Sequence record: PP355091.1
Reading direction: 5' to 3' (one strand)
Source: Escherichia phage 235Ecol030PP
Length of the DNA stretch: 64,000 nt
Shown: positions 38,899-40,256 of the stretch, piece after piece
Layout of the letters: every line of letters starts with the position of its first letter
Position numbering within the stretch: position 1 is the first letter of the stretch
The notes under the pieces: model-generated
Told to the model about the DNA's origin: nothing
The model's database searches: none
Seen by the model: only the letters and a program-made list of their open reading frames with translations
Translations under genes and position numbers: made by a program

Positions 38899-38974
38899 TG
38901 GTCGAGGCAGTAGGGATCGAACCTACGACCCAGGACTTAGAAGGTCCTTGCTCTTCCTTCTGAGCTATGCCCCG
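38899..38974 (-). tRNA. tRNA-Arg (anticodon TCT), CCA encoded
   Basis: Manual fold: acceptor CGGGGCA/TGCCTCG, anticodon stem AGGAC/GTCCT, loop CUUCUAA, T-arm GTAGG-TTCGATC-CCTAC; 76 nt. Confidence 0.85.
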
Positions 38975-38977
38975 TAA

Positions 38978-39643
38978 TTAAAATTTCATTTTTCGACCTT
39001 TAAACCATCCTTCTGGAATTGGGTCAGTTTTCTTAATACGTTTAGAAACTTTTTCATCTAATGAATGAATCCACATCATACCAAATTGGGAATTCTTTTC
39101 GCCCTGTTGATGTTTATTTCTGGCGTGAGATTCTTTCATTTTATTAATAGTTTCAGGAGTATGATGCTTATTTAAAAATCTGCTATTATTTAAAAATTTT
39201 TCCCTGTATTCAGGAGTTGACCACAAGCGTTTAAATACATTTGAACCATGTTTACGATATTTTTCTTGAAGTAAAATATCATTTTTAAAACGTGACTTAA
39301 ACGATTTAGCTCCTTTTAAGCTAGCATCTTTCTTCTGGTTTAGCATCCCAGGAATATTTACATGATCCCATCCACCTTCACCACCAAGTTTTAAATTATA
39401 CACATCTGGTCTATTTAAAAACTCTTCTGTGACAATATTTTTCTCGGCTTCAAGCATAGATTCTTTATCGTCAAAGAACTCTAATATTTCTTTAGAAAAA
39501 TTTTCTATACCATACTTATCTTGGGCTCTTTTTAATAATTTACCAGAACCCATATATCCATCATCTAAATTTTCGGTAGAATGAGCGCCTATATAGATTT
39601 TATTATTAATTTTATTTGTTATTTTATAAATGTAATGGAACAT
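38978..39643 (-). CDS. segB: GIY-YIG homing endonuclease SegB within tRNA cluster
   Basis: 221 aa; MFHYIYKITNKINNKIYIGAHS (GIY-YIG) N-terminus; located between tRNA-Arg and main tRNA cluster as in T4. Confidence 0.85.
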   Translation of the reverse strand: MFHYIYKITNKINNKIYIGAHSTENLDDGYMGSGKLLKRAQDKYGIENFSKEILEFFDDKESMLEAEKNIVTEEFLNRPDVYNLKLGGEGGWDHVNIPGMLNQKKDASLKGAKSFKSRFKNDILLQEKYRKHGSNVFKRLWSTPEYREKFLNNSRFLNKHHTPETINKMKESHARNKHQQGEKNSQFGMMWIHSLDEKVSKRIKKTDPIPEGWFKGRKMKF

Positions 39644-39684
39644 AAATATCTCCTATTTCTAAGAGTATTTATGTTCTCAAAATA

Positions 39685-39756
39685 TGGCCCTGGGTGGAAT
39701 TGAACCACCATCTGGCGATTATGAGTCGCTTGCTTGAACCTTCCAGCTACAGGGCC
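39685..39756 (-). tRNA. tRNA-Ile (anticodon CAT; Met-type anticodon, assigned Ile by T4 precedent), CCA not encoded
   Basis: Acceptor GGCCCTG/CAGGGCC, anticodon loop CUCAUAA, T-arm GGTGG-TTCAATT-CCACC; 72 nt. Confidence 0.8.
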
Positions 39757-39762
39757 TTGATA

Positions 39763-39835
39763 TGCTGATTGACGGAATCGAACCGCCGACGTCCTCATTA
39801 CAAGTGAGGTGCTCTACCTACTGAGCTAAATCAGC
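39763..39835 (-). tRNA. tRNA-Thr (anticodon TGT), CCA not encoded
   Basis: Acceptor GCTGATT/AATCAGC, anticodon stem CCTCA/TGAGG loop CUUGUAA; 73 nt. Confidence 0.85.
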
Positions 39836-39842
39836 GAAATTA

Positions 39843-39929
39843 CGGAGGCGATAGGATTTGAACCTATGAGTCGCCGGAGCGACTGCCGGTTTTCAAGACC
39901 GGTGCATTAAACCACTCTGCCACGCCTCC
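39843..39929 (-). tRNA. tRNA-Ser (anticodon TGA), long variable arm, CCA not encoded
   Basis: Acceptor GGAGGCG/CGCCTCC, anticodon stem CCGGT/ACCGG loop CUUGAAA; 87 nt. Confidence 0.85.
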
Positions 39930-39931
39930 AG

Positions 39932-40005
39932 TCTCCGTGGCAGGATTTGAACCTACGACATTCTGCTCCCAAAGCAGACGCTCTACCAAACTGAGCTACA
40001 CGGAG
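39932..40005 (-). tRNA. tRNA-Pro (anticodon TGG), CCA not encoded; separated from tRNA-Ser by 2 nt
   Basis: Acceptor CTCCGTG/CACGGAG, anticodon stem TCTGC/GCAGA loop UUUGGGA; 74 nt. Confidence 0.85.
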
Positions 40006-40018
40006 TAAATTAAATTTG

Positions 40019-40089
40019 AGCGGATAATGAGAATCGAACTCACATCATCAGATTGGAAGTCTGAGGTAATACCATTATACGATATCCGC
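40019..40089 (-). tRNA. tRNA-Gly (anticodon TCC)
   Basis: Acceptor GCGGATA/TATCCGC, anticodon stem TCAGA/TCTGA loop CUUCCAA; 71 nt. Confidence 0.85.
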
Positions 40090-40095
40090 AAACTT

Positions 40096-40182
40096 TGGTA
40101 CGAGAAGTGGGACTCGAACCCACAAGGAAATCATTCCGCAGCATTTTAAGTGCTGTGTCTTTACCAATTTGACCATTCTCGC
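40096..40182 (-). tRNA. tRNA-Leu (anticodon TAA), long variable arm, CCA encoded
   Basis: Acceptor GCGAGAA/TTCTCGT, anticodon stem CAGCA/TGCTG loop CUUAAAA; 87 nt. Confidence 0.85.
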
Positions 40183-40183
40183 G

Positions 40184-40256
40184 CTGGGAATAAAGGACTC
40201 GAACCTTTGCATCCTGGAATCAAAATCCAGTGCCTTACCAACTTGGCTAATTCCCA
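40184..40256 (-). tRNA. tRNA-Gln (anticodon TTG), CCA not encoded; 1 nt from tRNA-Leu
   Basis: Acceptor TGGGAAT/ATTCCCA, anticodon stem CTGGA/TCCAG loop UUUUGAU; 73 nt. Confidence 0.85.

Follow-up and report, generated by a model that had tools for sequence, protein, structure and literature searches.

The 64,000-nucleotide stretch of Escherichia phage 235Ecol030PP analysed here (record PP355091.1; 'the window' below means this whole stretch) carries on its minus strand, at positions 38899-40256, a cluster of eight transfer RNA (tRNA) genes that is interrupted by segB, the gene of a free-standing homing endonuclease. We read this locus as a tRNA operon of the Tequatrovirus kind, distinct from that of T4 itself, in which a single transcript would be processed by host enzymes, the tRNAs would supply codons for the phage, and segB would spread by homing; we give this account as a whole a probability of roughly 0.9. 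The identification of the cluster itself is confirmed, and no result contradicted it. The locus is of an already known kind, namely a textbook tRNA operon whose homing endonuclease is known as well, and the phage is close to sequenced ones. Its value is mainly one for annotation, as many records label the AUA-decoding tRNA as Met, and the only thread that we consider worth following is the association of segB with the loss of encoded CCA.

When ARAGORN was run over the whole window, it returned exactly eight tRNA genes, all within 38899-40256 and on the minus strand, with anticodons ttg, taa, tcc, tgg, tga, tgt, cat and tct. The same eight genes were found with the Rfam model RF00005, at scores of 59.9 to 73.5 bits (gathering score 29) and E-values of 1e-10 to 1e-14; beyond them, the Rfam scan of the 64 kb gave no match reaching any threshold. 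In the direction in which it is transcribed (coordinates decreasing), the cluster reads Gln, Leu, Gly, Pro, Ser, Thr, the gene with anticodon CAT, segB and Arg. The gene for tRNA-Gln (UUG) lies at 40184-40256 (Rfam 67.4 bits), followed by tRNA-Leu (UAA), of type II, at 40096-40182 (60.9 bits; body 40182-40099), tRNA-Gly (UCC) at 40019-40089 (65.8 bits), tRNA-Pro (UGG) at 39932-40005 (69.7 bits), tRNA-Ser (UGA), also of type II, at 39843-39929 (62.6 bits), tRNA-Thr (UGU) at 39763-39835 (73.5 bits), the CAT tRNA, best read as tRNA-Ile2 (see below), at 39685-39756 (59.9 bits) and, beyond segB, tRNA-Arg (UCU) at 38899-38974 (63.9 bits; body 38974-38902). The seven upstream genes, from Gln to CAT, are packed into 572 nucleotides, of which just 38 lie outside tRNA bodies. 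An earlier note on this DNA, made from the letters alone, had folded the eight tRNAs by hand and had proposed a check with tRNA prediction programs. All eight genes were recovered with the identities, order and anticodons that it had given, ARAGORN and Rfam being in agreement; it had left unmentioned the strand and the elements that follow tRNA-Arg (an open reading frame (ORF) of 116 codons, the small RNAs rnaD and rnaC, and a terminator), which are described below.

Spacers between the genes were measured on the Rfam boundaries, from the 5' end to the discriminator base. The Gln-Leu spacer is then 1 nucleotide (C, at 40183), the Pro-Ser spacer 2 nucleotides (CT, at 39931-39930) and the Thr-CAT spacer 6 nucleotides, the first two values being those of the earlier note. 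The zero spacing that appears in the ARAGORN output is due to the program extending tRNA-Gln and tRNA-Pro by one base and beginning tRNA-Ser one base early. After the discriminator, the bases read C and then GCG for Gln, CCAA for Leu, CAAA for Gly, CT and then GG for Pro, TAAT for Ser, TATC for Thr, TATT for the CAT tRNA and CCAA for Arg. From these bases it follows that CCA is encoded only in tRNA-Leu (40098-40096) and tRNA-Arg (38901-38899), as had been claimed, and that six of the eight genes are without it: the trailer is CAA in place of CCA in Gly, UAA in Ser and TATCAA in Thr. The first C of CCA is kept in Gln, Pro and Gly, and the spacer base between Gln and Leu could serve as C74 of tRNA-Gln. 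The idea that the CCA-less tRNAs are released from dimeric precursors fits the Gln-Leu and Pro-Ser pairs and probably, given the 6-nucleotide spacer, Thr-CAT; it does not fit Gly.

The interruption between the CAT tRNA and tRNA-Arg is indeed segB (38978-39643, minus strand), identified by homology to T4 SegB, Pfam and PHROGs. Among the 221 residues of its product, 212 (96%) are identical to those of T4 SegB in a gapless alignment with 9 substitutions, which includes the C-terminal DNA-binding part. The GIY-YIG family of Pfam (PF01541) matches at 30.7 bits, compared to a cut-off of 22.6, and the PHROGs match is to phrog_314, homing endonuclease (2e-51). The catalytic motif reads NNKIYIG, with Y17 and G19 present; mutation of either residue inactivates the SegB of T6 (PMC13096335). 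The leader of segB begins directly after the discriminator of the CAT tRNA, the gene starts 41 nucleotides past that discriminator, and it stops 3 nucleotides ahead of tRNA-Arg, so that the segB mRNA is effectively a spacer in the tRNA precursor. A hairpin covers its Shine-Dalgarno sequence and AUG (39636-39679, minus strand; -18.6 kcal/mol, z = -6.2); none of 200 shuffled sequences folded equally well, and the structure is conserved with T4, where the same hairpin has been proposed to act as a brake on SegB synthesis (PMC2330249). By analogy, translation of segB is probably restrained here by the hairpin over the ribosome-binding site. The T4 enzyme recognises a T-arm motif, GGTTCRANTCC, and prefers to cut just after CCAR; its site-specific cleavage at the 3' ends of tRNA genes and its homing in mixed infections are documented (PMC2330249). 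If T4 and T6 are a guide, SegB of the window would cut the 3' ends of tRNA genes in relatives that lack segB, and repair of the break would copy segB and the adjacent tRNA genes into the cut genome.

ARAGORN was applied identically to T4 (NC_000866), the cluster of which lies at 71173-72530 of that record. The two clusters share the eight anticodons, their order and strand, the place of segB between the CAT tRNA and Arg, the 1-nucleotide Gln-Leu and 2-nucleotide Pro-Ser spacers and the UAA after Ser, as well as a MotA box, the segB hairpin, rnaC, the terminator and flanking genes of the same kind. Identity to T4 in the tRNA bodies is 100% for Gly and Ser, 99% for Thr, 98% for Leu, 89% for Gln, 85% for Pro, and 64% for both the CAT tRNA and Arg; the divergence of Gln and Pro lies largely in stems, and it is fully compensated in the Gln anticodon stem. 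The differences begin with CCA, which T4 encodes in Leu, Gly, Thr and Arg, whereas the window has it in Leu and Arg only. The Thr trailer is CCAA in T4 (Thr-Ile spacing of CCA plus one nucleotide) compared to TATCAA in the window. Arg, rnaD and rnaC are contiguous in T4, whereas the window has the 116-codon ORF between Arg and rnaD, an arrangement like that of T2.

Gene order, spacers, the 96% identity of SegB and the near-perfect Gly, Ser and Thr bodies might suggest that the locus is that of T4 itself, with classical T4 tRNA processing unchanged. The chances of this are practically nil, and we rejected it, as the alignment to T4 already refutes it. Over the 2.3-kb region, Escherichia phage IME537 is the top match in the database (96.9%), and T4 is outside the best 30 of 913 records; the CCA of Gly and Thr is encoded in T4 and not in the window; for the CAT and Arg tRNAs, identity is as low as 64%; and two ORFs are absent from T4, one of 351 nucleotides between Arg and rnaD and another upstream of Gln. 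The earlier note had spoken of a match to classical T4 tRNA biology, which is right for the architecture and for the Pro-Ser and Gln-Leu features and fails for the number of encoded CCAs, the CAT and Arg tRNAs and the downstream module.

The Tequatrovirus operon has closer relatives than T4. The match to IME537 includes the 116-codon ORF and the layout is the same. The layout and the exact CCA pattern of the window, restricted to Leu and Arg, were found in at least seven sequenced phages, IME537, G8, SG1 (a Salmonella phage), G28, EP01, e11/2 and SHFML-26, together with the same CAT allele; within this group, several have a more divergent segB (81 to 86% amino acid identity) or another Arg allele, and G28 is without the 116-codon ORF. 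T2/T2L and phages of the RB10 type have in common with the window the Gln-Leu-Gly-Pro-Ser block and the sequence of the CAT tRNA, an allele that also occurs in RB33 and numerous further phages; for Arg, the allele is of T2 type and is followed in T2 by the same 116-codon ORF. Unlike the window, T2/T2L and the RB10-type phages have no segB, carry extra Tyr, Asn and sometimes His tRNAs, and encode CCA on every tRNA but Gln and Pro. At the top of the acceptor stem of tRNA-Leu, the window has a G1-U72 wobble pair (40182 and 40100, minus strand) compared to G1-C72 in T4; G8, SG1 and G28 share the allele of the window.

Work on T4 suggests how these tRNAs may mature. Host RNase P would cut the 5' end of each tRNA, thereby freeing the upstream partner in Gln-Leu and Pro-Ser; trailers other than CCA would be removed by host RNase BN/Z and exonucleases; and the host CCA-adding enzyme would finish the six tRNAs that have no encoded CCA. 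T4 has eight tRNA genes and makes six of the eight tRNAs through dimeric precursors; in its Pro-Ser dimer neither half carries CCA, and the Ser end is UAA (PMC11143913). RNase P is more efficient when CCA is already present (PMC11143913), and the T4 tRNAs for Pro, Ser and Ile need the host CCA-adding enzyme and RNase BN/Z to mature, according to Deutscher, Foulds and McClain 1974 and Seidman and McClain 1975 as cited in PMC11143913. E. coli encodes CCA in all of its tRNA genes, and its RNase BN/Z processes precursors without CCA (PMC2777011). In the lineage of the window, six of the eight tRNAs would thus need CCA addition by the host enzyme, compared to four in T4.

Since Gly and Thr have lost CCA relative to T4, they might be seen as decaying pseudogenes: CCA has become CAA in Gly, and CCAA has become TATCAA in Thr, by comparison with T4 and with every segB-less phage of the survey described below. 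We consider such decay very improbable. The bodies of both tRNAs are intact, as judged from their identity to T4 and their Rfam scores (65.8 and 73.5 bits), and identical Gly and Thr alleles are retained in at least seven other phages. Moreover, the T4 genes for Pro, Ser, Ile and Gln are functional without an encoded CCA, as is established and is described in PMC11143913.

The tRNA with anticodon CAT required separate attention. ARAGORN labels it tRNA-Met, because the program names tRNAs by anticodon alone, and the identical sequence is annotated as tRNA-Met in RB33, T2, SG1, RB10 and other records, so that an elongator or initiator tRNA-Met could be supposed. Labels based on the anticodon are unable to tell Met from Ile2, and the remaining evidence points elsewhere. 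The best E. coli match, at 80.8% identity (a best match, and not a head-to-head alignment with tRNA-Met), is a gene annotated as tRNA-Ile by PGAP and present in 5412 of 5426 complete genomes; it has the same anticodon stem-loop, GCGACTCATAATCGC. The sequence is identical in T2, RB33 and REP4, the last of which annotates it as tRNA-Ile_CAT, and the gene occupies the position that tRNA-Ile has in T4, to which it is 64% identical. The ATA codon is 6.2 times commoner in the window than in E. coli, and in the baseplate genes it accounts for 26% of Ile codons. The acceptor stem also has the pairs C4-G69 and C5-G68, which we take to be determinants for TilS. A tRNA-Met is thus unlikely, and the better reading of the sequence is tRNA-Ile2, which would decode AUA after modification of C34 to lysidine by TilS; the assignment to Ile made in the earlier note finds support in the E. 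coli match and in the REP4 annotation.

We then counted the A-ending codons that are cognate to the eight tRNAs, namely CAA, TTA, GGA, CCA, TCA, ACA, ATA and AGA; the seven anticodons that start with U, and CAT as the AUA decoder, would read them. Per 1000 codons, they numbered 199 in the plus-strand baseplate and tail genes (ORFs at 45.6-63.8 kb), 130 in the minus-strand ORFs and 63 in E. coli core genes (n = 24). The comparison with late genes that had been proposed along with the tRNA calls therefore gives, for the baseplate genes, about three times the E. coli level. The codon most enriched over E. coli was AGA (14.5-fold), followed by ATA. Because A-ending codons are heavily used in this AT-rich phage, above all in its late structural genes, and are rare in E. 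coli, the tRNAs would top up the host pool; the codon bias fits the standard view that they supplement this pool for phage genes, especially late ones.

A different main job for the tRNAs may be imagined, that of replacing host tRNAs destroyed by tRNA-cleaving defences, with segB kept as an amplifier. In T6, SegB amplifies tRNA-Tyr and thereby overcomes Septu, and an association of segB with tRNA genes holds across phages (PMC13096335). The cluster of the window, however, has no tRNA-Tyr, the target demonstrated in T6, and its set of tRNAs matches the over-used A-ending codons one for one. We therefore hold defence to be a rather unlikely main function. Codon supplementation, which we favour, and evasion of defences are compatible and not mutually exclusive.

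How the cluster may be transcribed was approached through its surroundings. A site resembling a MotA-box middle promoter, TGCTTTA-N12-TATTAT, was found by pattern search at 40326-40350 (minus strand), about 70 nucleotides upstream of tRNA-Gln. Matches to the pattern number 16 in the window (4.7 expected), the majority of them on the minus strand, and the copy at the tRNA genes is identical in T4. At the other end, an intrinsic terminator was predicted at 38199-38222 (minus strand), with a 10-bp stem of which 7 pairs are GC, followed by TTTTTGGT; it is conserved in T4. In that phage, a single transcript from a middle promoter just upstream takes in all the tRNAs, segB and both the species I and the species II RNA, and termination occurs after species I (PMC2330249). 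By analogy, one transcript of about 2.1 kb would run from a MotA-type middle promoter near 40350 to the terminator at 38222-38199, which we infer to close the unit; it would comprise the seven packed tRNAs, the segB mRNA, tRNA-Arg, the 116-codon ORF and the stable RNAs rnaD and rnaC. The leader ahead of tRNA-Gln contains, downstream of the promoter-like site, an 11-bp hairpin (40265-40290, minus strand; leader -14.3 kcal/mol, z = -3.4); it is conserved in T4, where two bases in or beside the loop differ.

Some points weigh against the account as a whole. The promoter was called from a match to the consensus only, and a sigma-70 scan, less informative than the MotA-box pattern, gave 8 sites, which is fewer than the 11.4 of shuffled sequence. 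The Ile identity of the CAT tRNA is derived from sequence similarity. The 24 E. coli genes form a small reference set for the codon comparison. Finally, because the window is only 64 kb of the genome, a CCA-adding enzyme encoded by the phage may lie outside it.

Downstream of tRNA-Arg, the 116-codon ORF (38530-38880, minus strand; 351 nucleotides), of unknown function, belongs to phrog_3355 (8.5e-55) and had no Pfam match. It corresponds to the ORF named 'trna.2' in T2L (PMC2330249) and is not in T4. Its stop codon overlaps the 5' end of rnaD. The homologue of rnaD (species 2 RNA), at about 38418-38533 on the minus strand, was placed by alignment to the annotated T4 gene; it is conserved with T4 in its 5' and 3' parts and has diverged in the middle. 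As the fold of the isolated rnaD is not significant, being no better than that of shuffled sequences (z = -0.28), the call comes from T4 homology only. The homologue of rnaC (species 1 RNA), at about 38273-38411 on the minus strand, was likewise found by alignment to T4 rnaC, from which it differs by 3 mismatches in 139 nucleotides (counted by eye). It folds at -50.2 kcal/mol (z = -4.0) and has a tRNA-like T arm, GGTTCGAATCC; the core motif of SegB is present in it.

A survey was made of segB and encoded CCA in 28 Tequatrovirus clusters, the window and 27 others taken from GenBank phage records; this sample is neither random nor phylogenetically corrected. In IMG/VR, scans for relatives turned up a single close SegB locus and three tRNA-Ser matches. 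Twelve clusters had no segB-like gene (T2, EC121, R5505, Sf21, RB10, RB27, ZN18, UFV10, DalCa, ESh17, PhiZZ6 and REP4), and in all twelve the only tRNAs without an encoded CCA were Gln and Pro, which come first in the abutting pairs. The other 16, the window and 15 database phages, had segB beside Arg. In 15 of these, Ser was without CCA, through a change of CCAG to TAAT or a 6-nucleotide deletion; the CAT tRNA was without it in 13 of the 13 clusters where segB directly follows, CCA being replaced by TA; Thr had TATCAA in 9 of the 16, and Gly had CAA in 8. Full SegB-type sites (GGTTCRANTCC-N11-CCAR) numbered 5 to 7 per cluster in the absence of segB and 1 to 4 in its presence. The window has a single one, in tRNA-Leu, the sole gene there with both the core motif and CCAR.

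Alleles in which CCA is destroyed within an otherwise conserved context were thus confined, among the 28 clusters, to those carrying segB. As the surrounding sequence is otherwise conserved, these losses are local events and not cassette borders; and as SegB prefers to cut just after CCAR, a link with the enzyme is suggested. The missing CCAs might be footprints of living with SegB, either an escape from self-cleavage or the scars of mutagenic repair. We put this forward tentatively and judge it more doubtful than probable, given several points on the other side. In Pu-Krd-SF6, which has a segB (94% identical), the Ser, Thr, CAT and Tyr tRNAs still have an encoded CCA; in the case of T6, an active SegB cuts inside the tRNA genes of the same phage in vitro (PMC13096335); and all of the CCA sites lie less than 1 kb from segB, with which they are co-inherited or co-converted. 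A strict rule by which segB never occurs alongside a Ser, Thr or CAT tRNA bearing CCA was rejected because of Pu-Krd-SF6, and since this one segB phage retains its CCAs, a causal role of SegB is a hypothesis only. If it were causal, the locus would provide a concrete case of a selfish endonuclease reshaping the genes that it travels with, and a growing reliance on the host CCA-adding enzyme would be the price of losing CCA.

In KIT03 and EO1, an endonuclease of 216 amino acids stands in place of tRNA-Pro, between Gly and Ser (3081-3731 and 2481-3131, respectively, in coordinates of the extracted regions), and all CCAs are kept. These two phages were considered as a counter-example to the link between SegB and CCA loss and set aside, because only the N-terminal GIY-YIG catalytic domain is in common with SegB (83% amino acid identity over 113 residues), the C-terminal part being unrelated; they are therefore little informative on this link. 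The enzyme looks like a domain-swapped relative of SegB with a different insertion site within the cluster. Three further phages have an endonuclease gene at the position of tRNA-Gln (again in extracted-region coordinates: JEP6, 2692-3300; BP32, 2704-3312; Pu-Krd-SF6, 2316-2653), annotated as HNH in BP32 and Pu-Krd-SF6 and as 'homing endonuclease' in JEP6. For homing endonuclease genes of several kinds, the tRNA cluster is a hot spot.

Some part of the region was matched in 913 phage records, and in 54 of these an unbroken match covers 80% or more of the 2.3 kb. For segB alone there were 190 records, 130 of them at full length, and the module of Arg and the 116-codon ORF was found in 301 phage records, T2 included. 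In laboratory crosses of T4 with T2L, segB and the trna.2 ORF of T2L were almost mutually exclusive (99.6% against 0.4% of the progeny; PMC2330249). Both are present together in the window and in dozens of database phages, and a recombination junction is therefore placed right at the segB/Arg boundary in these natural phages.

Upstream of the operon, the window encodes an ipI-like internal virion protein (phrog_4363, 41800-42084) and a deoxynucleoside monophosphate kinase (42842-43567). The genomic context is as in the T4 type (e.x genes and trna.x, ipI, 57, gene 1), and the neighbours match RB33 and T2. Immediately ahead of the tRNA promoter region is an ORF of 183 codons (phrog_2290, function unknown; 40343-40894, minus strand), with homologues in RB33, T2 and RB27 and none in T4, where trna.2 adjoins the cluster. 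On the other side, downstream of the operon terminator and upstream of a 111-codon ORF (38144-37809), the box TATAAATA at 38185-38192 (minus strand) fits the T4 late-promoter consensus; overall, this motif is not enriched in the window, with 14 matches compared to 11.7 expected.

Finally, in the records of IME537, F1, DalCa, EO1 and EP01 the cluster region is not annotated for tRNAs, and those of IME537, F1, EP01 and e11/2 list a 'hypothetical protein' of 41 amino acids that lies inside tRNA-Pro and tRNA-Ser (39864-39989 in the window, minus strand). Both the 41-codon ORF and the absent tRNA annotations are annotation artefacts.

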